In this document: positions 1 to 50,018 of the stretch, piece by piece
Layout of the letters: the number at the start of each line of letters is the position of its first letter
Position numbering within the stretch: position 1 is the first letter of the stretch
Assembly (NCBI GenBank): GCA_003453595.1
Contig: DMOG01000026.1
Span: 6,567-70,566 of the forward strand
Length of the DNA stretch: 64,000 nt
Reading direction: 5' to 3'
Source of the DNA: Candidatus Uhrbacteria bacterium
GTDB taxonomy: Bacteria; Patescibacteriota; Patescibacteriia; UBA9934
Notes under the pieces: model-generated
What the model saw: only the letters and a program-made list of their open reading frames with translations
The model's database searches: none
Told to the model about the DNA's origin: nothing
Program-made: the position numbers and the translations under genes

Positions 1-58
1 GATTGAACTGCCGACCTCTTCCTTACCATGGAAGCGCTCTGCCACTGAGCTACAACGG
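1..58 (-). tRNA. tRNA-Thr (anticodon GGU); 3' part (T-stem and acceptor end) is cut off by the window start
   Basis: The reverse complement reads GCCGTTG-TA-GCTC-AGTGGCA-GAGC-G-CTTCC-ATGGTAA-GGAAG-AGGTC-GGCAG-TTCAATC. This shows a canonical D-arm, an anticodon stem CTTCC/GGAAG and loop AUGGUAA, which gives anticodon GGU. Confidence 0.8.
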
Positions 59-74
59 CACTTGAAAAACGACC

Positions 75-275: not shown

Positions 276-350
276 TGGAGCCGAAAGTGGGATTCGAACC
301 CACGACCTACGGTTTACAAAACCGTTGCTCTGCCGCTGAGCTATTTCGGC
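276..350 (-). tRNA. tRNA-Thr (anticodon UGU), 75 nt, CCA encoded
   Basis: The reverse complement reads GCCGAAA-TA-GCTC-AGCGGCA-GAGC-A-ACGGT-TTTGTAA-ACCGT-AGGTC-GTGGG-TTCGAAT-CCCAC-TTTCGGC-T-CCA. All four stems pair, the T-loop is TTCGAAT, and the anticodon loop gives UGU. Confidence 0.85.
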
Positions 351-2957: not shown

Positions 2958-3188
2958 TTAGCTTCCGTCTCTGATGGTGTAAGTGTAGGAGATGCTTCCC
3001 ACCGTCACTACATATTCATCCATCATCCCACCAAACATGACTGACCCGTCATCGGTGAGAAGTGGCATGTTCATGCCTTGAAATTGGTTTATTGTCCTAC
3101 CATTCTTGCGCCAGGTTAACGAGATCGGTGCTTCCACAGCCGACTCCTGACCTAGACCATTGATATATTTTGACAGCACCATTGGCAT
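2958..3188 (-). CDS. Hypothetical small protein (76 aa); weak call
   Basis: An open frame only, with no recognisable motif and no clear RBS. Confidence 0.25.
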   Translation of the reverse strand: MPMVLSKYINGLGQESAVEAPISLTWRKNGRTINQFQGMNMPLLTDDGSVMFGGMMDEYVVTVGSISYTYTIRDGS

Positions 3189-3260
3189 TTATTTATATAT
3201 TTATAGGAAATTATTGCAAATATAAGGAATTTATAGTATTATTTGCCTGCACAAAAAAAT

Positions 3261-3334
3261 AGGGGTGTAGTGAAATGGTATCACGAAGGTCTCCAAAACC
3301 TTTATTCTGGGTTCGAGCCCCAGCGCCCCTGCCA
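3261..3334 (+). tRNA. tRNA-Trp (anticodon CCA), CCA encoded, followed by a perfect palindromic hairpin CCACGTCGTTCGCGAACGACGTGG (3332-3355)
   Basis: Reads AGGGGTG-TA-GTGA-AATGGTA-TCAC-G-AAGGT-CTCCAAA-ACCTT-TATT-CTGGG-TTCGAGC-CCCAG-CGCCCCT-G-CCA. The acceptor stem has one G-U pair and the anticodon loop gives CCA. Confidence 0.85.
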
Positions 3335-3477
3335 CGTCGTTCGCGAACGACGTGGCCTGCCACTCAGATTTTATGCGGGCATTTAGTCTGCAGTTGAGAA
3401 TAGTGTAGGTCACGGTTCGTAACAATGTGATAGCAAAAGAGCGCCGAAAGGTGTTCTTTTGCTATAATGGAATTATT

Positions 3478-3738
3478 ATGTGGTATTTCTATATCCTACA
3501 AAGTCAGAAGGATTTAAATTATTTCTACAAAGGATCTACCGGCGATTTGCGAGCAAGATTCACACAACACAATGATGGCGAAGTTGAATCCACGAAACCG
3601 AGATGTCCTTGGCGGCTGGTTTACTATGAAGCTTATATCTCAGAAAAATCTGCAAGGTTGCGAGAAAAATCTGTAAAACAAAGTGGGTCAATCTCAATTC
3701 CGTTATTGAAGAGAGTAAAAGAAAGTTTGAATAATTAG
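3478..3738 (+). CDS. GIY-YIG nuclease superfamily protein (UPF0213/YhbQ-like); the ORF extends upstream to 3427
   Basis: Has 'YFYILQS...YKGSTGDLRARFTQHNDG...RPWRLVYYEAY...REK', which matches the GIY-YIG motifs (GIY...YIG, R, H-N, E). Confidence 0.75.
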   Translation: MWYFYILQSQKDLNYFYKGSTGDLRARFTQHNDGEVESTKPRCPWRLVYYEAYISEKSARLREKSVKQSGSISIPLLKRVKESLNN

Positions 3739-3800
3739 TGTTTACTGGGTCTTTTTCGTTGGTGGCTCGTAGACTGTGAACTTTATAGTATACTGAATAT

Positions 3801-4067
3801 ATGAAAAACTACTTATTGACTTTGTTTATAATGATACTAATGGGAGCTGGGTGTGCCGTAGTTGACGAAGATTTCCCAATAGTTAATAAGGAGGCCGAAC
3901 CTTTTGAAGATATTTATTATATCTGCACGAGTACGGAAACAGAGAATAGAATTTATGAAACTGTATTTTGCGGTGATGATTCTTGCTGGCTTTCCTTTTA
4001 TGATCAAAACGGAAACCTTATAGAAAAGACGCCTGAACTTGGACCCGGTGCTAGCAATATGAATTAA
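3801..4067 (+). CDS. Small lipoprotein, hypothetical
   Basis: The N-terminus MKNYLLTLFIMILMGAGCAV has a lipobox (LMGAG-C). Confidence 0.5.
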   Translation: MKNYLLTLFIMILMGAGCAVVDEDFPIVNKEAEPFEDIYYICTSTETENRIYETVFCGDDSCWLSFYDQNGNLIEKTPELGPGASNMN

Positions 4068-4312
4068 CCAGAAACTAAAGTTGAAGACTGTCAAAGAACT
4101 ACCGAGAATTATTTTATGAGTAAGATTGAAGAATAATAGTTCGCACCTCGCTCATGAGCCCCTGCCATGTAGAACGCTTCCTAGACGGGGAGCGTTTTGC
4201 TATTGAAGAAAACAGTAATTTTTGCGTAATACTAATAAAAAGCAAGACGCACCCGAGGACGGCGACGAGTACGTCTGCCGTCACGCGGGTGCGTGAGCGA
4301 GTGTGCCAGACC

Positions 4313-4906
4313 CTATCGGATCATGGCGTGGTTGTTCCAGAACTCCACCGAGGCGAGGTAGGCCTCGCGGTTGAGGGCGACGCCGCTGCCGCCCTCCTCC
4401 TTACCCAGTGCGTTGCGCATCATGGTGATGGGGGGCATGGGGTCCTCGGCGGGGTTGAGGCCGGCGTTGATGGAGACGATGCCCCACTCGGCGTCGGGTA
4501 CATCGCGCTCCATGTTCGGCGTCTGGTCGGCTTCCTCCTCCAGTGCCTCGCGGTTGTAGAGGATGATGTCGAGCCACTCCGCCTGCGGCGCCTTCAACCC
4601 CTCGAACCAGCGGGTCAGCACCGGCAGCTCACCCTCGCGCCGCGCCTCGTAGCCGGAGCGCAGCAGGTGTGCGTTGTCGGGGGTGATGGCCGCGATGGGG
4701 GCCGTGGTGGTTGTGGTGTTGCGGACGAAGAGGTGCTTGCAAAACGGCGCGTAGCCGTCCACCAGCATCTCGCCCGCCTCGAGCGCCGCATTGGCGATCT
4801 CGACGAGCTCCTCGGCGGTCATCCCAACGATGCGGGTGCCAGCGAAGTTCTTGTTGGCAAAGTGGCGGCCGAGGGCGAACTTGGTCATTCCGATGGTGTT
4901 GCGCAT
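4313..4906 (-). CDS. Hypothetical protein encoded in a high-GC island (about 62% GC); start assigned at MRNTIG with a GGAGG RBS
   Basis: A long ORF in a high-GC segment. A GGAGGCACC sequence sits directly upstream of ATG 4904-4906 on the minus strand. The overlapping plus-strand ORF 4154-4969 is judged a GC-induced shadow ORF. Confidence 0.55.
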   Translation of the reverse strand: MRNTIGMTKFALGRHFANKNFAGTRIVGMTAEELVEIANAALEAGEMLVDGYAPFCKHLFVRNTTTTTAPIAAITPDNAHLLRSGYEARREGELPVLTRWFEGLKAPQAEWLDIILYNREALEEEADQTPNMERDVPDAEWGIVSINAGLNPAEDPMPPITMMRNALGKEEGGSGVALNREAYLASVEFWNNHAMIR

Positions 4907-5180
4907 GGTGCCTCCATGAAGTTGGCCCGGATGCCTCCGGACGTGTCGACTTCGACACGATTCGGTTAGACGTTTGATACAATCTCGCGTCGCCTGCTTT
5001 ATAGGTTGGCACCTACAAATCAGGAAAAACGAGAAAAGCCAGTAACTGGATTCGTTCAAATAAAGAGAATAAGCGCAAATACCGGCGTTCTGTGGTTACC
5101 GTTACCCTTTGTGTGCTTGGATACCATAAATCTCAAGCATTAGGACAGCCCTGCTTGCAGGGTGTTTTTTTAATTATTTT

Positions 5181-6335
5181 TTACCATCGACCAGGACCGT
5201 TTGGATCATAGCCGTAGGCAACTTCTAACCCGTCGTTGTATCCGTCGTTGTCAGAGTCAGTGTCGAAACGATTTGTCCAGTGAATAGTCATCTCATTGTA
5301 ATCACTTAGACCATCACCATCAGAATCAAGTTTACCTTTTCCGTTTGGATTGTAACCATTAATCACTTCTGTTCCATCTTTATAACCATCGCCGTCAGTG
5401 TCAGCACTGAAGATATCAGTCTTCCAAATATTTGTCTCATCTTGGTTTGTTAAACCATCGCCGTCAGTGTCTAGGCTTGACTCAATACTATCAATACTAG
5501 ACATAACAAAATCTTCTGTCTGACGACTATCATAATTTTCAAATGACAATGCACTTTCTGGTACACGAATATTTGTTACTTTGTTAATACTATTTAACAA
5601 AACTGAGAAGCCGAACTTTGTATAAGCCACGCCCACAGGGTCACTGACAACATCCAAAGTAAACATTACTGGCATCATCTCCACTGTATCAATCCAGAAG
5701 TTACCACTAATCTTTAAGTTTTGCTCCTGCAGTGATTTCAGCTTAATAGCGTCGGTGTTAGAAATCTGTCTTTGCTCAATCAGATAATCGGCCAGCTTTT
5801 CACAATTGATTTCGTAATAATAACGAACAGCAAGTTTACCGCTAATATAATCAACTGTTTCCGCATGATATTCAATCACCCCATTTTTTAGCATTTCAGT
5901 AATTAATGTTTTTATTTGGTCCAAATCATTTTCTTCGTTTTCTGAAAATAATGAGATCTGGCCATCATTCATTTTAATAAAAAACCAATCATCTCCTGCT
6001 TGTGAGAAATATATTTTGTCGTGAGTTACAATCATTGATCCGTAAAAATCTTTGAATTGACTATCATAATCAGTCACTTGAAGGGCAAAATCAAAGGAAC
6101 CGTTTCCTTGTTCATCAATCACACCATCAAAGTCAGTATGGAGACTAAATGGATTATCCATTTTCTCGCTGTTTGTCTCAAAGTAAAAATCAGTATTAAA
6201 ATCTACTGACTTAATTTCAGATATATTATCAACTACCTCAGATGTAGGATCAGCTAGGAGCGTTGAGGCAAGCACTGAATTAAAAGGCATAATAATCAGC
6301 GCTATTAATGGCAAAATGAGTATTTTTCTAATCAT
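5181..6335 (-). CDS. Secreted protein with C-terminal thrombospondin type-3-like calcium-binding repeats
   Basis: Has a signal peptide MIRKILILPLIALIIMPFNSVLAS and repeated DTDGDGxxDxxE / DSDGDG / DTDSDNDG motifs. Confidence 0.6.
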   Translation of the reverse strand: MIRKILILPLIALIIMPFNSVLASTLLADPTSEVVDNISEIKSVDFNTDFYFETNSEKMDNPFSLHTDFDGVIDEQGNGSFDFALQVTDYDSQFKDFYGSMIVTHDKIYFSQAGDDWFFIKMNDGQISLFSENEENDLDQIKTLITEMLKNGVIEYHAETVDYISGKLAVRYYYEINCEKLADYLIEQRQISNTDAIKLKSLQEQNLKISGNFWIDTVEMMPVMFTLDVVSDPVGVAYTKFGFSVLLNSINKVTNIRVPESALSFENYDSRQTEDFVMSSIDSIESSLDTDGDGLTNQDETNIWKTDIFSADTDGDGYKDGTEVINGYNPNGKGKLDSDGDGLSDYNEMTIHWTNRFDTDSDNDGYNDGLEVAYGYDPNGPGRW

Positions 6336-6555
6336 AGAGATTTATTAATTAACGCGAAATAATAGCACAAAAACGCGGTTTTGTCAATCACAAAACCTAA
6401 TCTTTACTATAAATAATGTACTATAAATAATTGACAAAAAGCCTTATTTAGACTACACTTCTCGAGTTGTACTAAGGGATAGCCATGCGTTCCCCGACTA
6501 TTTTAAAAACTTAAGCCTGTACATCGAGTTATCACAACAGTGGAAGCCTCATAGC

Positions 6556-6596
6556 AACCACCCCCCACCCCTCCTTAGAAAAGGAGGGGAGTCGAG
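6556..6596. repeat. Copy of the dispersed palindromic repeat (AACCACCCCCCACCCCTCCTTAGAAAAGGAGGGGAGTCGAG) in the 5' leader of the DEAD-box helicase gene
   Basis: Matches the family consensus CCCCTCCTT-loop-AAGGAGGGG. Confidence 0.6.
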
Positions 6597-6636
6597 ATGT
6601 GATGCCACAGGGGTTTGAGTAATATACGGCACATGC

Positions 6637-8073
6637 TTGCCGTTCAAACCCTATTTTATGAAACAGGACTCACAAAAGAGCTCTTCGCTCTTTGCAAATC
6701 TTGGATTGTCTTCTGACTTTGTCCAAGTGTTAGATCGTCTTAACTTTAAGACCCCAACCCCTATTCAAGAAAAATCAATTCCAGAAACTTTGCAAGGCAA
6801 AGATGTAATTGGTATTGCCCAAACTGGAACAGGAAAAACTCTGGCCTTTTGTTTGCCGATGCTAGAAAAAATTAGAAAAGAAGGCGGATCAGGACTAATC
6901 GTTGTGCCGACCCGCGAACTTGCTGCTCAGGTTAGTGAAGAGATTGAAAAAGTTGGCGGACGCCTTGGTTTTAAAACCACTTTACTTGTTGGTGGTGCTG
7001 ACATTGGTCAACAAATTCGTTCACTTAGACGCGGGCCTCATGTCATTGTGGCCACTCCGGGTCGACTTAACGACCATCTTGAAAGACGCACAGCCGATCT
7101 TTCTCATGTCCACACACTAGTGCTTGACGAAGCTGATAGAATGTTAGACATGGGATTTGCGCCACAGATCAATCAAATTCTTCAGTCTGTACCAAACGAT
7201 CGTCAAACTTTGCTTTTTTCCGCAACCATTCCAGAAGGAGTTGCAAAAATCGCCCAAGGATACATGAATAATCCAATCACCATTAAAGTTGTCCCGACTG
7301 GAACTGACGCGAAAAGCATAAAACAAGGAATGTATTATGTTGATGCTTCCAGCAAATTCCCTCTTTTACAAGAACTTTTGGAAAGATACGAAAACGGACC
7401 AGTACTTGTTTTCTGCCGCACAAAACATGCTACTAAAAAAATGGCTCGTATTCTAAACACTCAAGGACATGTTACCGAAGAGCTTCATTCCAATCGAACA
7501 CTTAGCCAACGCCGTCGCGCTTTACAAAACTTCAAATCTGGAAAAAGTCGAATCTTGGTTGCTACCGATGTGGCTGCCCGAGGAATTGATGTAAAGGAAA
7601 TTGAGCTAGTCGTTAACTATGACATTCCTGACCAAAACGAAGATTACATTCACAGAATCGGCCGAACAGGACGAGCAGGACACACAGGATGCGCTTTGTC
7701 TTTTGTTTCACCAGATCAATATCGCGACATGAAAGCAATTGAGCGCCTTGTCGGTATCTCAATCCCGGTTTTGGAAGCGTCATGCACTCTAACTGCCAAG
7801 GACATGGAACGATACGCCTATAGCGGATCAAAACCATCGAGCCATGGACAAGGCGGACGAGGAGGACGCAATCAATCTCGAGGTCGAAGATCAAGCTCTC
7901 AACAAAGATCAACCGATCGTACGCCTGCATACCAAACAGTTAGAGCAGGAGAAAGTCAAAATGAAAATCGAGCTGGAAGACCAAAACGCCGTTCTGGTAA
8001 ATCTGGCGCATATCAACCAGAATTTGCCCGCGGTCGCCGACCAGGCTCTGCCCGGCAATCAAAAAAAGGATAA
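6637..8073 (+). CDS. DEAD-box ATP-dependent RNA helicase with an Arg/Gly-rich C-terminal tail
   Basis: Shows motif I AQTGTGKT, Ia PTRELA, II DEAD (VLDEADRM), III SAT, and VI HRIGRTGRAG. Confidence 0.9.
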   Translation: MPFKPYFMKQDSQKSSSLFANLGLSSDFVQVLDRLNFKTPTPIQEKSIPETLQGKDVIGIAQTGTGKTLAFCLPMLEKIRKEGGSGLIVVPTRELAAQVSEEIEKVGGRLGFKTTLLVGGADIGQQIRSLRRGPHVIVATPGRLNDHLERRTADLSHVHTLVLDEADRMLDMGFAPQINQILQSVPNDRQTLLFSATIPEGVAKIAQGYMNNPITIKVVPTGTDAKSIKQGMYYVDASSKFPLLQELLERYENGPVLVFCRTKHATKKMARILNTQGHVTEELHSNRTLSQRRRALQNFKSGKSRILVATDVAARGIDVKEIELVVNYDIPDQNEDYIHRIGRTGRAGHTGCALSFVSPDQYRDMKAIERLVGISIPVLEASCTLTAKDMERYAYSGSKPSSHGQGGRGGRNQSRGRRSSSQQRSTDRTPAYQTVRAGESQNENRAGRPKRRSGKSGAYQPEFARGRRPGSARQSKKG

Positions 8074-11405: not shown

Positions 11406-11423
11406 GATCTTGAAAAGAATGTG

Positions 11424-11475
11424 CGGTCAGGCCTTTACCCGTTACTTTTTAACGGATAAAGGCCTGACCGCATTG
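11424..11475. terminator. Long hairpin (stem about 22 bp) GCGGTCAGGCCTTTACCCGTTA / TAACGGATAAAGGCCTGACCGC between two minus-strand genes
   Basis: An inverted repeat with one mismatch, seen in the sequence. Confidence 0.5.
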
Positions 11476-19153: not shown

Positions 19154-19194
19154 AGTGGAGTTATTTTATCACAAAACGCAGACGGCAGATAAAC

Positions 19195-19365
19195 TCGGTC
19201 TCTCCCCCTTTTACAAGGGGGGAGTGGGCTGTGCCCTTCGTAGCCCAGAGGGCGAAAAAGGGAGGGGGTTAATATAGCTTCCGCCTTCCGGAATAACCAC
19301 CCCTAGCCCCTCCTTAAAAAGGAGGGGGAACCAAGTATTCCTAATCCCAATCTCCTCAATCCCCT
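19195..19365. repeat. Cluster of palindromic repeat elements (CTCTCCCCCTTTTACAAGGGGGGAG; GGGCTGTGCCCTTCGTAGCCCAGAGGGC; AGGGAGGGGGTTAATATAGCTTCC; AACCACCCCTAGCCCCTCCTTAAAAAGGAGGGGG) at the left edge of high-GC island B
   Basis: Several hairpin-forming units are shared with the clusters at 30690-30925 and 33230-33375. Confidence 0.65.
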
Positions 19366-19729: not shown

Positions 19730-20452
19730 ATGGCCGAAGAGAAGAAAAACGGGAAGCGTCAGGGCCCAGCCCTGTTCCTCTATCGCGGTCGAAAGGAGTG
19801 CGAAGAGCACCCCCTGACCGCGGACGAGCAGACCCTGGCCGACGCCCTGCGCGCCATGGCCACCATGGCCAACCAGGATCCGGCCGTCATGGCCAAGGTC
19901 CTGGAGATCGCCAAGGCCGCCCGTGCCCAGACCGAGCAGGCCCAGCTCAGCTGGTTGCTCGAGAACAAGCCGGACCAACTGGTCTACAAGGCCAAGTACG
20001 ATGTCCGACGCTTCCTCCAGCCCACGGACATGGCCTGCCAGGCCGTACTCGAGGCGGCGGGCAAGTCCGGGATATACCGCAAGTGGCGCGAAGGCGACAC
20101 CTGGAAGGACTCCGGGACCTTCCCCTACCGGTACGAGCTGGACAAAAAGACTGGCATGATCCGGCTCTCGTCCAACCTCGTCGCGGCAGCCCGCGTGATG
20201 TACTTCATCGCGGGTAGTCAGAAGAAGGGCGTCCGCATGTCCTTCGCCGAGACCGGTGACCGGCTGGTCGCTCTGGGTGCCCTGACCCAGAAGCAGCTGG
20301 CGGACATCCGCAAGCAAGCCGGTCCGCTGGCCGTCAAGGCCGGTGGCTCGGAGCAGGAACTCGAATTCCGACCGACAGCCGGGCGCCAGTTGGCGCAGGC
20401 CAAGGGAGGTGGCCTCACCGCCACCATGGCCGAGATGGCCGGCAAGGGCTAG
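19730..20452 (+). CDS. Ala-rich hypothetical protein in high-GC island B (about 63% GC); start assigned at MAEEKK with an AAGGAGG RBS
   Basis: A strong SD lies 6 nt upstream of ATG 19730. The opposite-strand ORFs here are GC shadows. Confidence 0.55.
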   Translation: MAEEKKNGKRQGPALFLYRGRKECEEHPLTADEQTLADALRAMATMANQDPAVMAKVLEIAKAARAQTEQAQLSWLLENKPDQLVYKAKYDVRRFLQPTDMACQAVLEAAGKSGIYRKWREGDTWKDSGTFPYRYELDKKTGMIRLSSNLVAAARVMYFIAGSQKKGVRMSFAETGDRLVALGALTQKQLADIRKQAGPLAVKAGGSEQELEFRPTAGRQLAQAKGGGLTATMAEMAGKG

Positions 20453-20635: not shown

Positions 20636-20883
20636 CACAGCAACCTGGAGGTTGATGGATTTCTTCTGACAATCATTTAATGTTATCAGGAGGATTTGGA
20701 ACCTCAAGTTCTAGGACCTGGCCTTGGCTAGCTCCCAGTACACACCCGAGGTTCCTCGGGGCATATTTCTTCGGAAGTCACTGCCCCACATGTTCCTAGC
20801 TAGTCTAGGAGCTCTACATCACCTCCAGATTGCTGTGCCTAAAAAACACGCATTCCAAAAACCCGCACACCCAGGAGAGAAGA

Positions 20884-21467
20884 TGACGCAGTTTGTATCC
20901 GACCGGAACGGTCGCGTCGTGGTCGGGGCCTCCTGCCCCGACATCGGCGAGCTCGGCCTGGCCAACCTGTACGACGACGGAGACGAGGTTGCCCAGTCGT
21001 ACGACCCCCTGCGGCGGTGCAAGCCGCTCGTCGACGAAGTCGATGAGGACTGCCTCGCGCTCGAAGAGATCAACCTCGACGAGGCGCAAGCCCCGTGGTG
21101 GTATGACTTCTGCGATGAGCGCGAGGCGATCGAGCCCGACGAAGACGATGCCCCGACCGAGGCCACCCTGCCGGCCGACGCGGACAACGACGACGACCTC
21201 GACGAGCTCGACGCCATGGCCGAGCATGTCGCCAAGGGTTTCGACATGGAGATCCTGGAGGAACGCGCGTTGCGTGCCCACCTCCAGGACAGAGATCCCG
21301 GCCGCCAGCCGGCCAACAAGGGGGGGAGCTGGATCCATCGGCGCCCCCGGCAGTGGGTCGTGGCTCGTGGCCACGACTCCATCCTGCAGGCCACGCCCCG
21401 TCGGACGCCCAAGGCGTTCTGCGAGGCCGAGCGGCTCGCCGACATCCTCGCCGAGGCCACGGCCTAG
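20884..21467 (+). CDS. Acidic (Asp/Glu-rich) hypothetical protein in high-GC island B; start assigned at MTQFVS with an AGGAGAGAAG RBS
   Basis: The ORF has an SD and is followed by a 24-bp perfect palindrome CCCCCGACACAGCTGTGTCGGGGG at 21490-21513. Confidence 0.5.
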
Positions 21468-21529
21468 TCGCGGACTCGACCTACTATGCCCCCGACACAG
21501 CTGTGTCGGGGGCGTTGCGCGTTCTAAAT

Positions 21530-21594
21530 GGGGTCAGGTCTTTACTCGGAACACCTCATATCGATTTGGGTGTTCCGAGTAAAGACCTGACCCC
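21530..21594. repeat. Long-stem hairpin element, copy 1 (26-bp arms GGGGTCAGGTCTTTACTCGGAACACC / GGTGTTCCGAGTAAAGACCTGACCCC around a 13-nt loop)
   Basis: A perfect inverted repeat. The same arms recur at 49939-50003 with a different loop. Confidence 0.8.
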
Positions 21595-21598
21595 ATCT

Positions 21599-26507: not shown

Positions 26508-26592
26508 TTCGCGAAACTAAGTCAGTTAGACTTAGACACAGAGACTTAGACATTTTGTCTAAGTCTCGAAGCACTTTAGCTTGATTTTATTG
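26508..26592. repeat. Left flanking repeat of the IS200-like element (two hairpins: CTAAGTC-agtta-GACTTAG and GACTTAGACA-ttt-TGTCTAAGTC, plus CGAAGCACTTTAGCTTGATTTTATTG)
   Basis: A near-identical copy lies at 27370-27449 in direct orientation. Confidence 0.75.
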
Positions 26593-26638
26593 ATTTTTTT
26601 TTATTTTGTATAATCCTTTTCAGCTATATTTCAATAGA

Positions 26639-27250
26639 CTAGATCTTCAATCCAAAATCAATATTCATAGGACAACCATATTTTATCCAATCGATTAAAA
26701 ACTTGTCATACTCTTCACTACAGTCAAATTCATCATAGATTGATTGGCTATTACAGACATTATTACATTTACTAAATAATCTTGGATAACTAGACCATTG
26801 ATAATTCTGTAAATATTTAATGGCTTCTTGCACATTATCGACACCCTTCACCTTCCAATCTGGAAATAAGTATTTTAATGGATTCAAATGGATATATCGT
26901 GATATATGCAATAAATATCCATCATTATCAATTTCCTTAACCTTATAAGGTCCTTCGAATATACACCCAGTTCTTCGACTTATATCGTTATATCTGACAG
27001 TCGAGCTTATCCCAATTTTTTGCATAAACTTAGATATTCCTCCGTCAATTTTCTGCCTTAATAACAAATGAAAATGGTTATCCATCAAACAATAACAAAC
27101 AATATCGACTAATTGTTTACTTTTATTAAACCTCTTAAGGTTATACAAGAAAAATTTTCGATCATAATCACTTTTAAACAGTGGCTGCTTATCAACGCTT
27201 CTATTATATATATGGTAAAAACCATCATTAACTAAATTTTCGCGACGCAT
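26639..27250 (-). CDS. IS200/IS605-family or REP-associated tyrosine (Y1 HUH) transposase-like protein
   Basis: Has 'HIYNRSV...CYCLMDNHFHLLL', which is the HUH motif (HFHLL), a downstream catalytic Tyr region, and a size typical of about 200 aa. Confidence 0.7.
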   Translation of the reverse strand: MRRENLVNDGFYHIYNRSVDKQPLFKSDYDRKFFLYNLKRFNKSKQLVDIVCYCLMDNHFHLLLRQKIDGGISKFMQKIGISSTVRYNDISRRTGCIFEGPYKVKEIDNDGYLLHISRYIHLNPLKYLFPDWKVKGVDNVQEAIKYLQNYQWSSYPRLFSKCNNVCNSQSIYDEFDCSEEYDKFLIDWIKYGCPMNIDFGLKI

Positions 27251-27369: not shown

Positions 27370-27449
27370 GTGTCTTAGTCAATTTGACTTAGACATAGAG
27401 ACTTAGACAAAATGTCTAAGTCTCGAAGCACTTTAGCTTGATTTTATTG
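27370..27449. repeat. Right flanking repeat of the IS200-like element (GACTTAGACA-aaa-TGTCTAAGTC hairpin; the loop is inverted relative to the left copy)
   Basis: A direct sequence match to 26508-26592. Confidence 0.75.
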
Positions 27450-27454
27450 GGTTT

Positions 27455-28285
27455 CTATTTTCGCGGAGATTCTTTGCTGCGGTATTTATAAAAAAACTTT
27501 ATGGCACTATTTATCTGAATCCAAGTAAATTTATTGAACATTTGTTGCAAAAGCCCGCCGTCAGCGCTAGCTCGGCGGTGGTAGTGAATCATGTGTGCAT
27601 TTGGATAATACACAACTTTGTGTCCGTGTTCCCAAAATCGGCGACACAAATCATTATCTTCGTAATACATGAAAAATCGCTCATCAAAACTGCCGACTTC
27701 ATCCAAGGCAGTTTTGCGCGTAAACAAGGCCGCGCCAATTAGTGAATCAACCTCCATCTGTTGATCATGGCTTTGATCCATCATCAAATAATCCTCAATC
27801 GCTTGCTTACCAACTCCAAACTTTCCTAAAAATGTTCGACGATATGCTGGCACCATTAAAGTTGGAGACCGATAACATGAATACTGCAAACTTCCGTCTG
27901 GATTACGCAATTGCGGACCACACATTCCCACCTCTGGATTTGCGTCCATAAACTCCAGCATTGTTTCCAACGACTCTGGCTGGATCACAATATCTGGATT
28001 AAAAATCAGTACATAACGCCCACGCGCCACATCTATCCCCCTATTCATAGCTGAGCCAAATCCAACATTACGCTCCAGCGGAATATGACGAACCTGTGGA
28101 AACTCAGCGCGCGCCATTTCTCCAAATCCAGCCCCTGGATTGTTATCAACCACAATAATTTCAAAACCAAGCTTTGGTGCAGCTCGTCGAATACTATCAA
28201 GCGTTTGGCGAATAAGATACTTTTCAAATGTATGGACAATGATAATCGACAAGTCCAGTTGTTGGGCCTTATCTGACATAGGCAC
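27455..28285 (-). CDS. Glycosyltransferase family 2
   Basis: Has 'IIVVDNNPGAGF...' and 'FNPDIV', the GT2 DxD-like region. Confidence 0.75.
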   Translation of the reverse strand: MPMSDKAQQLDLSIIIVHTFEKYLIRQTLDSIRRAAPKLGFEIIVVDNNPGAGFGEMARAEFPQVRHIPLERNVGFGSAMNRGIDVARGRYVLIFNPDIVIQPESLETMLEFMDANPEVGMCGPQLRNPDGSLQYSCYRSPTLMVPAYRRTFLGKFGVGKQAIEDYLMMDQSHDQQMEVDSLIGAALFTRKTALDEVGSFDERFFMYYEDNDLCRRFWEHGHKVVYYPNAHMIHYHRRASADGGLLQQMFNKFTWIQINSAIKFFYKYRSKESPRK

Positions 28286-29329: not shown

Positions 29330-29700
29330 GATTGTCGAGGAGGCCAACCCCCCACTTCTCAGTTCGATCAAATTCGAAAAGATCTCTCCCCTTCTTCACT
29401 AAAGTTACGAAGGGCCCATCGAAGTTTGATACGAAGTTGGGCTAGGCGTCGAGATGGAGAGACTTATTCCCCACTTCGAACGAAGAGAGAAGTCTTCTCG
29501 ATGAAATCTATCGTCGCTCTGCTCCTCGGGATGGGAAATAGAAGTCGAGATAGGACAAGACTCATTCCCCACTTCGAACGAAGAGAGAAGTCTTCTCGAG
29601 AAGATCTCTCGTCGCTCTGCTCCTCGAGATGGGGAAAAAGAAGTCGAGAGATGGGAAATGCACTCCTCGACTCCTCGCGTAAACGCTCGGTCGCTCGGAA
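29330..29700. repeat. Tandem repeat array with a period of about 96-99 bp, with units beginning at 29448, 29544 and 29643 (partial) plus degenerate upstream copies; each unit contains small palindromes (TTCGAACGAA, GAGAAGTCTTCTC)
   Basis: Unit alignment was seen directly, e.g. GTCGAGAT(G/A)G...TTCCCCACTTCGAACGAAGAGAGAAGTCTTCTCGA...CGTCGCTCTGCTCCTCG(G/A)GATGGG. Confidence 0.75.
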
Positions 29701-29802: not shown

Positions 29803-30504
29803 CTACATGAAGTAGTACCAGGCGTCGCAGCCCTCCTCGGGGGTGGTGGCGGAGGTGCCGGTGCTCCAGCCGAGCGACTGGACGCCGGACAGGCCGTCGG
29901 TGGTGGTGTCGATGGTCTCGTCCGAGAAGTAGAACTGACCGGCCAGCCCGCAACTGGTCCCGTCCAGGTTCGACGAGGCGTACGAGTACGCACCGTCGTC
30001 CACCCGCTCGACGTTGAGCTTCAGCGAGTAGAACTCGCTGTCGCAGTCGAACTCGCCCTCGACCCACGCCGCGTTGGTCGCGGTGCCGACGGCGTTGCCG
30101 TTGCCCCAGGAGGAGCAGACAGCGTTGTCACCGGCGTCGTAGGCGATGACCCAGAGGGACATCGCGTCATGCGACTGGACACCCCAGTACCCGAGGTACC
30201 AAGTGTCGGCGTCGGCATCGGCGTCGGCATCGGCGTCGGCATCGGCGTCGGCATCGGCGTCCGCGTCCGCATCCGCATCGGCGTCGGCGTCCGCGTCCGC
30301 ATCGGCGTCCGCGTCGGCATCCGCGTCGGTGTCGCTGTCGGCATCGGCGTCGGTGTCCGCGTCCTCTTCCCCGTCGCCGGGGTTGAGGTCACGATCGCCG
30401 TCGTCGGCGACGTAGCCGGTGTCGACGTCGTCGCGGTCGCGGGGCTGGGACAGGTCGGTGCAGCCGACGAGGGCTGCGATCATGGTGATCAGGAAATACC
30501 GCAT
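29803..30504 (-). CDS. Lipoprotein with a (Asp-Ala)n low-complexity repeat, in high-GC island C
   Basis: Has a lipobox ALVGC-TDLS, a long DADADA... run encoded by the GCATCGGCGTCG hexamer microsatellite (about 30200-30345), and a Trp/Gly-rich C-terminal domain. GC is about 65%. Confidence 0.6.
   Translation of the reverse strand: MRYFLITMIAALVGCTDLSQPRDRDDVDTGYVADDGDRDLNPGDGEEDADTDADADSDTDADADADADADADADADADADADADADADADADADADADADTWYLGYWGVQSHDAMSLWVIAYDAGDNAVCSSWGNGNAVGTATNAAWVEGEFDCDSEFYSLKLNVERVDDGAYSYASSNLDGTSCGLAGQFYFSDETIDTTTDGLSGVQSLGWSTGTSATTPEEGCDAWYYFM
30200..30345. repeat. Hexanucleotide microsatellite (GCGTCGGCATCG)n inside the lipoprotein gene, encoding (DA)n
   Basis: Read directly. 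The shadow ORFs on the plus strand (SASASA..., GIGVGIGV...) are artefacts of this repeat. Confidence 0.8.
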
Positions 30505-30689: not shown

Positions 30690-30925
30690 GTTTTGATAGG
30701 CAACCACCCCACACCCCTCCTTGGGAAGGAGGGGAATCGAGACTCGGTCTCTCCCCCTTAGTAAGGGGGTCTTTTGCACATCATCTATTGACAAATCTGG
30801 CAAAATGGGCTAAGGTTCAGCGTTCATTATCAAAGAAGCGGAAGCCTCAACAACCACCCCTCCTCCTTCGCACAAGGCTACGGAGGACTATCGCAATTCC
30901 TCCTTGGGAAAGGAGGGGAGCCTGA
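30690..30925. repeat. Two clusters of the palindromic repeat family between the divergent island-C lipoprotein genes (GATAGGCAACCACCCCACACCCCTCCTTGGGAAGGAGGGGAATCGAGACTCGGTCTCTCCCCCTTAGTAAGGGGG; ...CAAGGCTACGGAGG...TTCCTCCTTGGGAAAGGAGGGGAGC)
   Basis: Matches the family consensus and sub-units also found at 19195-19365 and 33230-33375. Confidence 0.7.
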
Positions 30926-31092: not shown

Positions 31093-31620
31093 ATGCGCAA
31101 CCTGATGTGTCTGATCACCATCCTGCTGGCCTCGGCCTGCACGGATCTGTCCGGAAACCAGAACGGCGAGGAGACCTACGTCCCGTCCATGTCGTCCGAC
31201 GACATGGACAGCGATGGCCTGGTCGACGGCTACGACTCCGACGAGATCGTCGGCCCCATCGCCAGCTACCCGACGGAGCTCTGGGTGAACGCTGGCGCCC
31301 TGTCCTTCCCCTGGATGGGTGAGGAGATGTCCTTCCAGTGCCGCGACCACAACGGCCGGGTGCTGGACTTCGCCTGGCAGTACTGGTACAACGGCGAGGC
31401 CACCCCCGCCAACACCTGGTTCGTCGCCTACATCGACGACCGGGCCGGCGAAGGAGACTGGCTCTGCGCCTTCACCCGCAACGACCGGTCGGTGCTCGAC
31501 ATCACCGTGTCCAACGACCCCCTGGTCTGGACGCACGGCGGCGTCTGCATCTACCAGGCCAACAACGGCGTCTACCAGGCGCCGGGCAACAACTCCTGCG
31601 ACGACATCCGAGGCCTCTAG
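31093..31620 (+). CDS. Lipoprotein, hypothetical, in high-GC island C; start assigned at MRNLMC with a CAAGGAGG RBS
   Basis: Has a lipobox LLASAC-TDLS, which is the same C-TDLS start as the divergent (DA)n lipoprotein. It contains Trp and Cys pairs, and GC is about 64%. Confidence 0.6.
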   Translation: MRNLMCLITILLASACTDLSGNQNGEETYVPSMSSDDMDSDGLVDGYDSDEIVGPIASYPTELWVNAGALSFPWMGEEMSFQCRDHNGRVLDFAWQYWYNGEATPANTWFVAYIDDRAGEGDWLCAFTRNDRSVLDITVSNDPLVWTHGGVCIYQANNGVYQAPGNNSCDDIRGL

Positions 31621-31699
31621 CCTCGACCGTCGCCCAATCCTTGAACCCCCGACAGCTCAGCTGAGTATCGGGGGTTCTGTGCGTTTAGGTTATAGAACT

Positions 31700-31812
31700 T
31701 GATAGGCAACCACCCCCCCCACCCCTCCTTGGGAAGGAGGGGAGACCGAGGTGCGGGGATCGCGTGATAGGCAACCACCCCTAACCCCTCCTTGGGAAGG
31801 AGGGGTGGTTAG
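31700..31812. repeat. Two tandem copies of GATAGGCAACCACCCC-N-CCCCTCCTTGGGAAGGAGGGG; the second copy overlaps and encodes the last about 10 codons of rfbD
   Basis: Sequence identity to the family was seen. The reverse complement of the repeat translates to ...NHPSFPRRG*, matching the rfbD ORF C-terminus. Confidence 0.75.
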
Positions 31813-33229: not shown

Positions 33230-33375
33230 GGGGAAATAGATTAAGAAAGGAGGGAAAATCGAGACTCGGTCTCTCCCCCTTAGTAAGGGGGAGTAGGAGG
33301 GGGTTAATATAGCTTCCACTTTATAAAATAACCTCCCCTAACCCCTCCTTAAAAAGGAGGGGAACCGGGTTTGAG
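33230..33375. repeat. Cluster of palindromic repeat units between rfbC and rfbB (…ATCGAGACTCGGTCTCTCCCCCTTAGTAAGGGGGAG…GGGGTTAATATAGCTTCC…CCCCTAACCCCTCCTTAAAAAGGAGGGG)
   Basis: Shares sub-units with the clusters at 19195-19365 and 30690-30790. Confidence 0.7.
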
Positions 33376-35524: not shown

Positions 35525-35821
35525 CTAATTATTAATGAAGCGAAGTATTATTAAGCCTTGTTCCACAAAAAAATTATCTCTTATTCGGTCATGCAATTTT
35601 CCACTCTCTTGATAGTGCGAATCACCATCCACTTCGATAACCAATTTCTTCTCAGGGCAATAAAAATCGGCTATATATACTCCTATACCATGTTGCCGAC
35701 GGAACTTTACTCCTAATTGTGATCTGCTCAAATATCTCCAGAGAATCTGCTCTGCTTTTGAACAATCAGACCTTAATTGGCTTCGTTTACTTTTTTGAAT
35801 TCTCTGATTAAAAACTTTCAT
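35525..35821 (-). CDS. DUF559 / Vsr-like endonuclease-domain protein
   Basis: 'AEQILWRYLSRSQLGVKFRRQHGIGVYIADFYCPEKKLVIEVDGDSH' is the DUF559 pattern. The ATG start is at 35819-35821. The upstream GTG-start extension would be encoded by the repeat at 35822-35866. Confidence 0.7.
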   Translation of the reverse strand: MKVFNQRIQKSKRSQLRSDCSKAEQILWRYLSRSQLGVKFRRQHGIGVYIADFYCPEKKLVIEVDGDSHYQESGKLHDRIRDNFFVEQGLIILRFINN

Positions 35822-35866
35822 ATAATAGGCAACCACCCCTACCCCCTCCTTGGGAAGGAGGGGTGC
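35822..35866. repeat. Palindromic repeat copy (TAGGCAACCACCCCTACCCCCTCCTTGGGAAGGAGGGGTGCGC) abutting the DUF559 start
   Basis: Matches the family consensus. Confidence 0.7.
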
Positions 35867-37669: not shown

Positions 37670-39394
37670 TTAGTTTTTAATGATTGCGTACAAAGACTCA
37701 TCCCCAACGGTTGCAATCTTACGGAATTGAATATCGTTTTCCGCAAAAACCACTGATTGCAAATGTTCAATATCTGTCTTGGGAAGCGTAATTCCGAAGT
37801 AAAACATTGATGTTTGATCAAGTATCTCAGGAATGGCCTGATAGACATTTTCATCACGCAATGGAGTGATCACAGATCTATCTGGGAATATATACTTGTC
37901 AGCCATGTCAACAATAATTATGCAGTCTGGCGGTGTCTGTTCTAAAACGATCTGCTTTTTTTCAGTGAAAGATTCAAGATTATCATGAGTTTGAATAAAT
38001 CCATCATTTCCCCAGATCACTAACCGAACTGAAAAAAGAAAAACTAAAAAGATAATCAACCAAGGGCCAAAGTCAGCAAAAGGAAAATCCCTTCTTTTTA
38101 ACCATGCTCCGATCTTATCAACGGCAATGCCGGCAAATAATGAACCAAGAACAAATAATGGCAGCCAATAACGCACATAGGAGTTCCCTAAAGTCAAAAT
38201 TGAAGCATCAGGGTTGTCAGTGAATTTCCAGCTTCCATAAACAAATGCCAGCCAAATGCTAAGACCAAAAGTGATAATAAGCAAAGGTCGCCATCCTTTA
38301 TCCTTGAACACAAAAATTATTCCAAGAATTGAAAGTATGCTCATCCATGGATATAGCAGAAATCCATACTGCCAAACATTGCGCAAAATATTCATCTCAT
38401 GAATACCAAACGGGAATAGTACATTTAAAGGCGCAGGCCAAGATTTATCAATATTTGAGTCTTGATAGGCAACCACCCCCGACTCCTCCTTGGGAAGGAG
38501 GGGGGCTTCAGTCTGACTCTGATCTGCGACTGTATATCCAGTCTCTAGCATTGAACCGTATAAAACCTTATTCAATGCCAAAAATGGCAATAGAATCAAG
38601 ACTGCTGAAATTAGAAAAACAAAAACATTCTTTAAAACAAGCTCTTTTCGTTGCCAAAATAAAAATCCCACAACTAAAACTCCGACCCAAACAGCTTCTG
38701 ATGCTCGAAAAGAAATCGCCAACCCAAGCATCAGCCCTGCCAAAAACTCATCTAATATAACAGTTTTCTGCCAATTTGCTTTTATTGGCTGACAAACAAT
38801 GAAATACAAAGCTAGTAACAAAAGTGCAACAAAACCAACATTGTGCATCATTGTTCTGCCTGTGTAATACCAAAAAGCTGGATGAATCATGAGCAACAAT
38901 GCGCCAAAATCCGACAATCTTTCATTCTCAGTTAATCGATATAAAATTTGTTTCCAAGCAAATATTGCCAGAACAGCCAACAATGGAGTGACTAGCGAAA
39001 TACTCCAAGATCCAAAGATAAACGCAAATAAACCAGATAATACAGATAGTCCAAGGAAACTGACTGGAACTATGTATTGGATGCTATCTGTAACCACCCC
39101 CGCCCTTCGCTCTGCAGAGCTTCGGAGCGGCACAGCTAACCACTCCTTAAAAAAGGAGGGGAAACGAGACACAACAATCATGCTCCTTGGATGGACTAAA
39201 TTGGTCCATGAAATACCTTGATATTGTGATTGAATTGCTAAAGTTTGATCTTGAGCAAACTGTAAAGCAAAAACAGCGTTTGCATTCTCATCAGGAGAAT
39301 TAAAAATCATTTCAGATTGAGAATATGCAAAAAATGTAACAGAGAAAAAAAAGAGCAATAATGCCAAACTTCTTAAAACTGTTATTCTGCGCAT
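37670..39394 (-). CDS. GT-C fold glycosyltransferase (ArnT/PMT-like polytopic membrane protein) carrying two in-frame copies of the dispersed repeat
   Basis: Has about 12 TM helices and an N-terminal 'SPDENANAVFA' (DE-type first-loop motif). Repeat copies at 38463-38510 and 39091-39173 are read through in frame (…QTEAPLLPKEESGVVAYQD… and …SSAERRAGVVTD…). Confidence 0.6.
   Translation of the reverse strand: MRRITVLRSLALLLFFFSVTFFAYSQSEMIFNSPDENANAVFALQFAQDQTLAIQSQYQGISWTNLVHPRSMIVVSRFPSFFKEWLAVPLRSSAERRAGVVTDSIQYIVPVSFLGLSVLSGLFAFIFGSWSISLVTPLLAVLAIFAWKQILYRLTENERLSDFGALLLMIHPAFWYYTGRTMMHNVGFVALLLLALYFIVCQPIKANWQKTVILDEFLAGLMLGLAISFRASEAVWVGVLVVGFLFWQRKELVLKNVFVFLISAVLILLPFLALNKVLYGSMLETGYTVADQSQTEAPLLPKEESGVVAYQDSNIDKSWPAPLNVLFPFGIHEMNILRNVWQYGFLLYPWMSILSILGIIFVFKDKGWRPLLIITFGLSIWLAFVYGSWKFTDNPDASILTLGNSYVRYWLPLFVLGSLFAGIAVDKIGAWLKRRDFPFADFGPWLIIFLVFLFSVRLVIWGNDGFIQTHDNLESFTEKKQIVLEQTPPDCIIIVDMADKYIFPDRSVITPLRDENVYQAIPEILDQTSMFYFGITLPKTDIEHLQSVVFAENDIQFRKIATVGDESLYAIIKN
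38463..38510. repeat. Palindromic repeat copy inside the GT-C coding sequence (TGATAGGCAACCACCCCCGACTCCTCCTTGGGAAGGAGGGGGGC)
   Basis: A consensus match. The reading frame is preserved across the insertion. Confidence 0.75.
39091..39173. repeat. Palindromic repeat copy inside the GT-C coding sequence (GTAACCACCCCCGCCCTTCGCTCTGCAGAGCTTCGGAGCGGCACAGCTAACCACTCCTTAAAAAAGGAGGGG)
   Basis: A consensus match. The reading frame is preserved across the insertion. Confidence 0.7.
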
Positions 39395-49877: not shown

Positions 49878-49938
49878 AAGTAGATATGTGATTTATGCCT
49901 ATATTTTATCGGATTATAGAAGATATGGCAACCAAGTT

Positions 49939-50003
49939 GGGGTCAGGTCTTTACTCGGAACACCCAAATTGATAAAAGGTGTTCCGAGTAAAGACCTGAC
50001 CCC
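49939..50003. repeat. Long-stem hairpin element, copy 2 (same 26-bp arms as 21530-21594, loop CAAATTGATAAAA)
   Basis: The arms are identical to copy 1. Confidence 0.8.
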
Positions 50004-50018
50004 ATTTGCGCAAAACCA

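Follow-up and report, generated by a model that had tools for sequence, protein, structure and literature searches.

The 64,000-nucleotide stretch of DNA analyzed here (hereafter the window; positions 6,567 to 70,566 of the forward strand of contig DMOG01000026.1, assembly GCA_003453595.1) is part of a contig of Candidatus Uhrbacteria, within the Candidate Phyla Radiation (CPR), and has a G+C (GC) content of 41.5% overall. It contains a GC-rich segment, here called island A, which is built around one gene of the DUF3228 family. Comparison with related loci shows that island A is a genuine single-gene DUF3228 unit and that it belongs to a clade that is extreme in its G/C content whatever the surrounding genome, each member being differently placed in its genome. 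On balance, we favor the interpretation that island A is a horizontally acquired, transcript-sized single-gene cassette and that its GC content is probably kept high by a fixation bias, not by recency alone. The parts of the unit are the following (all coordinates without a locus name are those of the window):

4238-4968, minus strand: island A, consisting of leader, DUF3228 coding sequence (CDS) and terminator hairpin, transcript-sized, delimited by GC content against background
4907-4968, minus strand: 5' leader, 62 nt, 59.7% GC, with two small hairpins
4911-4915, minus strand: Shine-Dalgarno sequence GGAGG, 4 nt before the ATG at 4906, read from the sequence
4313-4906, minus strand: DUF3228 gene, 197 aa plus stop codon, GC at first, second and third codon positions (GC1/GC2/GC3) 0.63/0.44/0.92
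4234-4294, minus strand: predicted intrinsic terminator of the DUF3228 gene, from fold energy and shuffles

An earlier reading of the same DNA (hereafter the original prediction) had described about 900 bp at about 62% GC, encoding a single gene with its own Shine-Dalgarno sequence. Our measurements agree with this description and show that the segment is foreign in composition. The GC content is 61.5% in 4150-5050 and 65.5% once the edges are refined to 4238-4968, compared to a background of 39.7 ± 3.3% (maximum 49.1%) in 731-nt windows outside the three islands of the window (A, B and C). The GC3 of 0.92 compares to 0.32 ± 0.05 (range 0.18-0.41) in the native genes of the window (n = 35).

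The gene had been predicted to occupy 4313-4906 on the minus strand and to encode 198 aa; the open reading frame (ORF) is confirmed, with a length of 197 aa plus the stop codon. The predicted start is also present, with GGAGGCACC directly 5' of the ATG at 4906, and it fits the N-termini of homologues better than the call deposited at NCBI, which has 191 aa and starts at Met7. In an alignment of 31 homologues, the N-terminal family motif MxxIxITxFA lines up with the ATG at 4906, and because the homologue N-termini match this codon we prefer it over Met7. Read from the sequence, the GGAGG and the homologue N-termini together support a protein of 197 aa starting at this ATG. The protein is identical to an NCBI protein from a metagenome-assembled genome (MAG) of Candidatus Uhrbacteria (locus on DNJE01000013.1, GCA_003489995.1). 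It is a full-length member of the Pfam family DUF3228 (PF11539), with a score of 234.5 bits (cut-off 25) and residues 7-197 covering positions 2-194 of the 194 in the profile, and it also has the residues that are invariant in the family and the fold known from solved structures.

Of the two small hairpins in the leader, one is a perfect palindrome of 8 bp (4942-4959; minus-strand sequence CGTGTCGA-ag-TCGACACG) and the other is CCGGA-GGCA-TCCGG. At the other end of the unit, the terminator hairpin is GC-rich and 48 nt long (4247-4294), with the outer stem ACGCACCCG/CGGGUGCGU followed by CUUGCUUUUUAUU. Its folding energy is -40.7 kcal/mol (z = -5.26), and none of 200 shuffles folded as well.

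The protein homology search proposed in the original prediction was carried out and, besides the family assignment, identified 13 related loci, which we refer to as the island clade. In total, 80 loci were fetched from contigs of one genome per species and 11 (eight distinct) by exact-protein look-up; individual loci are given below by L numbers. Gene GC3 is 0.88-1.00 in 12 of the clade loci, as in the window, and 0.75 in L102, while the flanks have GC contents of 0.40-0.58. The clade loci are labelled Uhrbacteria, Nomurabacteria, Parcubacteria group or 'uncultured Gammaproteobacteria' (three loci, labels as deposited; their neighbours carry no taxon names), or are on unbinned contigs. In the alphaproteobacterial homologues (70+ loci), GC3 ranges from 0.49 to 0.92 and follows the genome, with a difference between gene and flank GC of about -0.02 to +0.08. 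A neighbour-joining tree, from which L102 and L103 were left out, united the remaining 11 clade loci and the window gene in one clade, sister to the alphaproteobacterial clade.

All 13 island-clade loci are in different neighbourhoods, and protein searches with the ORFs of the window identified no neighbour shared among them. Between L103 (5930-6683) and L009 (5919-6669; Uhrbacteria MAG), the sole homology is a 764-nt unit made up of a leader of about 70 nt, the CDS and a 3' hairpin part of about 90 nt, with nothing homologous beyond; island A has the same extent. The hairpin of this unit is 91% identical between the two loci and thereby more conserved than the CDS (77%). Its outer stem ACGCACCCG/CGGGTGCGT and the preceding 17 nt (CTCACGCACCCGCGTGA) are identical in the window, L009 and L103, and the inner stem of the window differs. 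For other pairs of loci, DNA homology covers the CDS alone, give or take a few nucleotides. Judged from these alignments, the recurring unit appears to be one promoterless transcript's worth of DNA with the extent of island A. A native gene with gene-intrinsic GC had been named as an outcome that would refute the original prediction. High GC is indeed intrinsic to the clade in every genome examined, but the gene is not native with respect to synteny, every relative being located elsewhere.

Some clade loci share sequence elements with a second gene nearby. In L011 (Nomurabacteria), a stretch of about 270 nt is found twice (5706-5960 and 7271-7524, 88% identity), once ahead of the DUF3228 gene and once ahead of a GC-rich gene at a distance of 1.5 kb; it contains a TTGACA-17-TATATT promoter and a 5' untranslated region (UTR) of about 50 nt. 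In L090, a 135-nt leader reaching to the Shine-Dalgarno sequence (1742-1877, 2562-2697) is common to the DUF3228 gene and the GC-rich gene that follows, and so is a 3' hairpin element (1135-1227, 2465-2558), which results in a head-to-tail, cassette-like arrangement. A similar repeated 3' element is found in L012 (51-137 and 4992-5076). Identities among these repeated upstream and 3' elements range from 77 to 90%, and they suggest either co-regulation or a common insertion platform. Searching five related loci, including the shared leaders, against Rfam at permissive E-values yielded only tRNAs and left the leaders unmatched.

Four further GC-rich genes of the window were recognized by frame plot and codon style:

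19730-20452, plus strand: B1, 240 aa, GC3 0.86
20883-21467, plus strand: B2, 194 aa, GC3 0.88
29803-30504, minus strand: C1, 233 aa, GC3 0.91, predicted lipoprotein
31093-31620, plus strand: C2, 175 aa, GC3 0.95, predicted lipoprotein

Together with the DUF3228 gene, these are the five island genes of the window, and all have the same C-ending codon style. The only homologue of C2 is found in L096, which comes from another sample and carries C2 at the orthologous locus. Its promoter region, its repetitive extragenic palindrome (REP)-like elements and its low-GC flanks are homologous to those of the window (86% identity in the upstream non-coding DNA, 77% overall, 69% for the C2 protein). GC3 of C2 is 0.95 in the window and 0.92 in L096. 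At 122 conserved residues, 87 third positions are unchanged, 19 differ by G↔C and 16 by G/C↔A/T. Bacterial mutation is biased towards A/T, and G↔C transversions belong to the least frequent changes; Hershberg and Petrov and Hildebrand et al. reportedly described this bias in 2010. The third-position pattern therefore indicates that A/T-ending variants were filtered in place, or that alleles were repeatedly replaced from a GC-rich pool between conserved flanks. In the syntenic pair L088/L091, a CDS GC content of 0.68-0.70 and a spacer GC content of 0.55 were kept through 11-16% divergence. Within the DUF3228 clade, members are 61-75% identical in protein, and of the third positions in codons for conserved residues, 23-33% differ, mostly by G↔C, which is about the ceiling if only G/C endings are allowed. 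GC-richness looks maintained because synonymous sites are saturated yet G/C-ending, and because GC3 of C2 is above 0.9 at the orthologous locus. Both UTRs and codons are GC-rich, up to the promoter and not beyond it, and this suggests that the property belongs to the transcript or to the transferred fragment.

We therefore arrive at a model in which the unit would have been acquired horizontally, its ultimate ancestry probably being shared with the alphaproteobacterial DUF3228 genes. After arrival, a fixation bias towards G/C would keep GC3 at 0.92 compared to the native 0.32; this bias could be selection on the transcript or on codons, or GC-biased gene conversion. Maintenance in situ is seen for C2 and for L088/L091, and to island A it is extended by analogy. 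Several observations weigh against our interpretation. Among the loci examined there is no syntenic orthologue of island A with low-GC flanks, and no empty site or donor for island A was found. No convincing direct or inverted repeats flank it that could be insertion scars, only short matches at chance level; no integrase is located within about 6 kb and no tyrosine recombinase in the neighbourhood. A scan of the minus strand yielded no convincing sigma-70 promoter for the DUF3228 gene. With a GC3 of 0.75, L102 looks as if it were ameliorating. Moreover, substitutions that preserve G/C would also be expected if divergence of the clade had taken place in GC-rich genomes not yet sampled, and the pattern between C2 and L096 could also be explained by the allele replacement mentioned above.

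The main rival to maintenance is plain recent transfer, in which each island was taken up recently and independently from unsampled GC-rich donors and has not yet ameliorated, with no maintaining force. We regard this as rather unlikely. Recent transfer fits well with the sharp edges of the island and its reach past the CDS into UTR and terminator, with a codon style resembling that of high-GC bacteria in all five island genes, with an alphaproteobacterial sister clade, with L102 as an ameliorating copy, and with the tRNA-Trp gene 1 kb away. It is difficult to reconcile with the fact that none of the 13 clade loci lies on a uniformly GC-rich contig, and that the window DUF3228 protein, searched against 5.8 billion proteins, has a best non-self match of only 75-76% identity, which is again an island. 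No relative of B1, B2 or C2 was found in a GC-rich organism, and well-sampled GC-rich donors are unlikely because these three genes have almost no homologues at all (for B1, none but itself among 5.8 billion proteins; for B2, one cluster with 49% identity among 1.84 billion representatives searched with HMMER). Further, C2/L096 and L088/L091 kept a GC3 of at least 0.92 through 11-23% nucleotide divergence, and G↔C changes are as frequent as G/C↔A/T changes in the syntenic pairs; AT-biased mutation would not lead one to expect this. Between neighbouring island genes, the spacers also drop to 36-49% GC.

A technical origin, with reads of a GC-rich organism misjoined into a CPR contig, is extremely improbable. 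MAG contigs can be chimeric, and one contig from the Joint Genome Institute (JGI) that overlaps the window probably is: in L092 (Ga0209518_1013194; 1-1192, window 7158 onward), the N-terminal half of the DEAD-box helicase is identical to that of the window, and the C-terminal half, which follows the LDEADRMLDMGF motif, belongs to an organism far richer in AT, so that the misassembly would have occurred at a conserved motif inside the helicase gene. For island A itself, however, this same independently assembled metagenome contig matches the window from 3356 to 7158 at 100% identity and covers both junctions. A coverage check of the junctions had been called for in the original prediction; the reproduction of both junctions in an independent assembly answers it in part. 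Additionally, island B was recovered identically from many samples and assemblers and is present in SRR6487811, SRR3309324, SRR1658465 and ERZ28563657, the same island architecture is present in MAGs of unrelated studies, and L096, with 77% identity and from another sample, has the C2 island together with low-GC flanks.

The transcription of the DUF3228 gene has to be considered together with its surroundings, which contain the following genes and signals:

3261-3334, plus strand: tRNA-Trp
3427-3738, plus strand: gene for a GIY-YIG protein
3801-4067, plus strand: gene for a predicted lipoprotein, 88 aa
4970-5146, plus strand: open frame of 58 codons, in the ORF list as a 45-aa TTG ORF at 5006-5143
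4973-5002, plus strand: promoter-like TTGATA (4973-4978), 18-nt spacer and TTTATA (4997-5002), read from the sequence
5148-5171, plus strand: hairpin CCCTG-CTTG-CAGGG (core from 5149) followed by T7, listed by the terminator scan
5181-6335, minus strand: gene for a TSP3-repeat protein
6637-8073, plus strand: gene for a DEAD-box helicase

Inside island A the gene has no promoter of its own, and it may be transcribed from the AT-rich native DNA upstream. Read on the minus strand, the TTTATA at 4997-5002 is TATAAA, about 91-96 nt upstream of the DUF3228 ATG, and this sequence (5002-4997) is a possible -10 box of the gene; by eye, no good -35 box is present near 4973-5002 on either strand. Alternatively, transcription could reach the gene by read-through from the co-oriented TSP3-repeat gene. 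Such read-through into DUF3228 is possible because the hairpin at 5148-5171, 18 nt past the stop codon of the TSP3-repeat gene, has no U-tract in the minus direction. Beyond the Shine-Dalgarno sequence, no common leader or motif was found among the five island genes of the window.

On the plus strand of this interval, the original prediction had placed a candidate small RNA or leader of about 150 nt, divergent from the DUF3228 gene, starting from the promoter-like site and ending at a clean intrinsic terminator (5149-5172), with no ORF between the two. Such a transcript of about 150-190 nt, running from about 5005 up to the T-tailed hairpin (5148-5171), now appears very unlikely. Both signals are present in the sequence, the hairpin was listed by the scan in the orientation in which it has its T-tract, and no annotated plus-strand gene is in need of that terminator. 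The promoter-like site falls short in quality: TTTATA has no A at position 2 and no T at position 6, both of which are required by the scan, and the site was not listed; promoter-like sites in 3000-7000 number 10, compared to 8.1 ± 3.3 in shuffles. The terminator cannot be called clean either. Its stem comprises only 5 perfect pairs, or 6 if G-U is included, terminator-like sites in the same interval occur at chance frequency (3 compared to 3.5 ± 2.0 in shuffles), and of the 21 perfect-stem hairpins with a T-rich tail in the window about half are inside genes, several with an equally long 5-bp stem; with the sequence CCCTG..CAGGG, it is the sole hairpin in the window. Contrary to the prediction, the interval contains the 58-codon open frame, which opens right after the TAG (4967-4969) at the island edge and is closed by a stop codon 1 nt ahead of the hairpin; this looks more like the 3' end of a coding gene than like a non-coding RNA.

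Searches for a known RNA or a relative were negative as well. The Rfam scan, proposed for 4980-5175, was run over 4050-5250 with E-values up to 10, and its best matches reached 12.8-17.8 bits (gathering scores 38-70); at the gathering score, the whole window yielded only tRNAs. The fold of 4985-5175 is unremarkable (z = -0.31, 70 of 200 shuffles as good). Neither the 226-nt intergenic segment nor the 58-aa peptide has a relative in any fetched locus, leaving no homologous sequence for covariation, and Pfam has no match for the peptide. We conclude that the plus-strand small RNA is unsupported.

We tentatively consider two other roles for the plus-strand hairpin and T-run. They could be the leftover terminator of a native gene truncated by the island, with 4970-5146 as its remnant, or an insulator against antisense read-through across DUF3228 from the genes at 3427-4067. 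The position of the open frame, exactly between island edge and hairpin, would suit the former, and the latter is consistent with the fact that those upstream plus-strand genes are followed only by a weak hairpin at about 4171-4198. A frame of 58 codons could also arise by chance, however, and the peptide without relative or domain match and the failure to find an empty-site relative argue against a truncated gene.

Around the insertion, tRNA-Trp is 1 kb from island A and not at a junction. Together with a tRNA gene truncated by the window start (1-59, minus strand) and tRNA-Thr (276-350, minus strand), it makes three tRNA genes in 3.4 kb beside the island A region. A 15-nt inverted repeat with 80% complementarity (4147-4161 and 4287-4301) links the native DNA on the left with the 3' UTR of DUF3228 and brackets the terminator; it may be due to chance or may be an insertion trace. 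A metagenome search for an empty site or for close relatives of the TSP3-repeat gene retrieved the same locus only. Viral contigs were considered as a vector and rejected: homologues on them are only distant (41-45%), and their GC content matches that of their own contigs.

The remaining island genes of the window are largely without relatives. Pfam has no match for B1, B2, C1 or C2, and the four show no homology to one another or to genes of the other loci. Searches of the island proteins against PADLOC, NCBIfam and PHROGs gave only low-complexity matches to the long Asp-Ala repeat of C1 (12-nt period, 30169-30415). C1 and C2 are divergently oriented and have similar signal peptides (..GCTDLS and ..ACTDLS). 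The spacers B1-B2 and C1-C2 drop to 36-50% GC. No ribosomal or translation genes are present in the window with which GC3 could be tested against expression level. In some other CPR loci, core genes such as those for sigma-70 and RNase III (L011, 2104-4429) and for ribosomal proteins L11 and L1 (L103, 1252-2881) have a GC3 of 0.63-0.79, compared to 0.30-0.66 in their neighbours, and heterogeneity of GC3 from gene to gene may be more general in CPR genomes.

The window also contains several repeat families. GC-rich, REP-like hairpins have the form (GATAGG)CAACCACCCC..CCCCTCCTTGGGAAGGAGGGG, often followed by ..TCTCCCCCTTAGTAAGGGGG, and shuffled sequence gave 0 matches. Copies are located at:

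6544-6597
19186-19336
30690-30769
31698-31805
33257-33370
35819-35863
38459-38503
39139-39169

Several of these bracket islands B and C, one is 1.6 kb from island A, and the family is also present in L096. A near-perfect palindrome of 68 nt, TGGGGTCAGGTCTTTACTCGGAACACC ... GGTGTTCCGAGTAAAGACCTGACCCCAT, occurs in two identical copies (21529-21596 and 49938-50005) and a diverged third (11422-11473); one copy is just downstream of B2, and Logan contigs of island B end inside the palindrome. Further, a pair of 86-nt elements with 87% identity (26517-26602 and 27374-27459) flanks the gene at 26639-27250, and tandem units of about 79 nt with 91% identity (29460-29538 and 29558-29636) are found in the 500-nt gap downstream of C1.

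What the DUF3228 protein does can be approached through its family. Structures are available for 2pd0 (Cryptosporidium parvum cgd2_2020) and 4fbd (Toxoplasma gondii), and a purine-nucleoside-type pocket was predicted in 2pd0 (PMC3892921). Our literature searches found no paper that mentions DUF3228. The fold has a weak RelE/BECR-like resemblance, with a sequence identity of 4-17%. Compared to the toxins with a BECR fold (RelE/ParE/HigB/BrnT and the CdiA-CT/colicin RNases), the DUF3228 protein is twice the size. RelE/ParE-type toxin-antitoxin systems have a toxin of about 90 aa in an operon with its antitoxin; DUF3228 shares neither the size nor the operon, and no antitoxin-like gene adjoins the gene in island A. 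No gene partner is conserved in more than 10 of 74 alphaproteobacterial DUF3228 loci, and PADLOC, NCBIfam and PHROGs have no match for the protein. It has many polar residues that are invariant. With low confidence, we suggest a stand-alone, enzyme-like protein acting on a nucleotide or RNA. In one MAG (L008 = L003; 5395-6582), an N-terminal extension of about 145 aa, GC-rich and without a Pfam match, is joined in frame to the DUF3228 domain, giving a 342-aa product.

How does the unit compare to known systems? Within Pfam DUF3228, the window copy stands apart in a separate clade of GC3-extreme single-gene units in low-GC genomes. With classical genomic islands, island A shares the aberrant composition and codon usage, the patchy distribution, the changing neighbours and a tRNA nearby, and accessory or toxin-antitoxin genes are near some DUF3228 loci, as in such islands. 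Of the mobility hallmarks, neither integrase or transposase, direct repeats nor insertion at a tRNA was found, and neither was a donor lineage or an empty site. The unit also differs from classical islands in being one transcript long (about 730-760 nt). According to the model of Lawrence and Ochman, horizontally transferred genes ameliorate towards the composition of the host; GC3 of the DUF3228 clade and of C2 shows no such drift across deep divergence. In Patescibacteria, horizontal gene transfer was described as frequent, for the most part confined to the phylum and of older date, with 4-35% divergence (PMC12455944). That study contains no description of the GC-extreme behaviour found here, and our literature searches on GC3 in Patescibacteria returned no description of persistently GC-extreme genes.

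Integron cassettes are similar to island A in several respects: a promoterless single ORF, a short leader, a 3' imperfect palindrome and a similar size. The 3' palindrome of the DUF3228 unit likewise has conserved outer arms and a variable centre, and the units in L090 are arranged head to tail with repeated junction elements. The window differs from integrons in having no array, and no integrase was found near island A as mentioned above. By eye, no attC core (RYYYAAC / GTTRRRY) is present in the ACGCACCCG...CGGGTGCGT palindrome of the window, L009 and L103, and the palindrome is followed by a T-tract and is predicted to behave as a terminator. GC-biased gene conversion, for which Lassalle et al. 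are said to have reported effects of a few percentage points in recombining bacterial genes in 2015, resembles the present case in raising GC3 of particular genes against AT-biased mutation, and the UTRs of the unit are GC-rich too. Here, by contrast, the gap is about 60 points (0.92 compared to 0.32, more than 10 standard deviations) and ends at transcript borders. We know of no description of GC-biased gene conversion this strong and sharp in bacteria.

At face value, the locus is an accessory gene of an ordinary kind, from a family already known; its compositional behaviour is unusual, and the evidence for this is comparative and limited. Island A is apparently one of a recurrent and stable class. 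A wider generalization is possible, although we consider it doubtful: CPR/Patescibacteria might carry a class of transcript-sized genes with a GC3 of about 0.9 or more, compared to about 0.3 in native genes, that is actively maintained in the long term by a gene- or transcript-specific force (selection on messenger RNA composition or codons, or strong local GC-biased gene conversion). These genes would move as promoterless units and be placed behind shared promoter or leader copies (as in L011 and L090), forming a compositionally marked, co-regulated accessory set instead of ordinary foreign DNA in decay; in the window, the class would consist of DUF3228 and lineage-restricted genes, two of which encode predicted lipoproteins.

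Atypical GC content is routinely read as a mark of recent foreign DNA that is due to ameliorate, whereas the DUF3228 clade keeps a near-maximal GC3 in many low-GC, streamlined genomes. For annotation, the start codon of the DUF3228 gene is corrected, and B1, B2, C1 and C2 are flagged as real genes. If our interpretation is true, dating of gene transfer by composition would fail in CPR organisms. It would also mean that a strong gene-specific force acts on bacterial base composition, through selection on transcripts or biased conversion, with an effect size that to our knowledge is far above any reported. The GC-rich genes, encoding predicted surface lipoproteins and an enzyme-like protein, would then be candidates for the host-interaction biology of the CPR.

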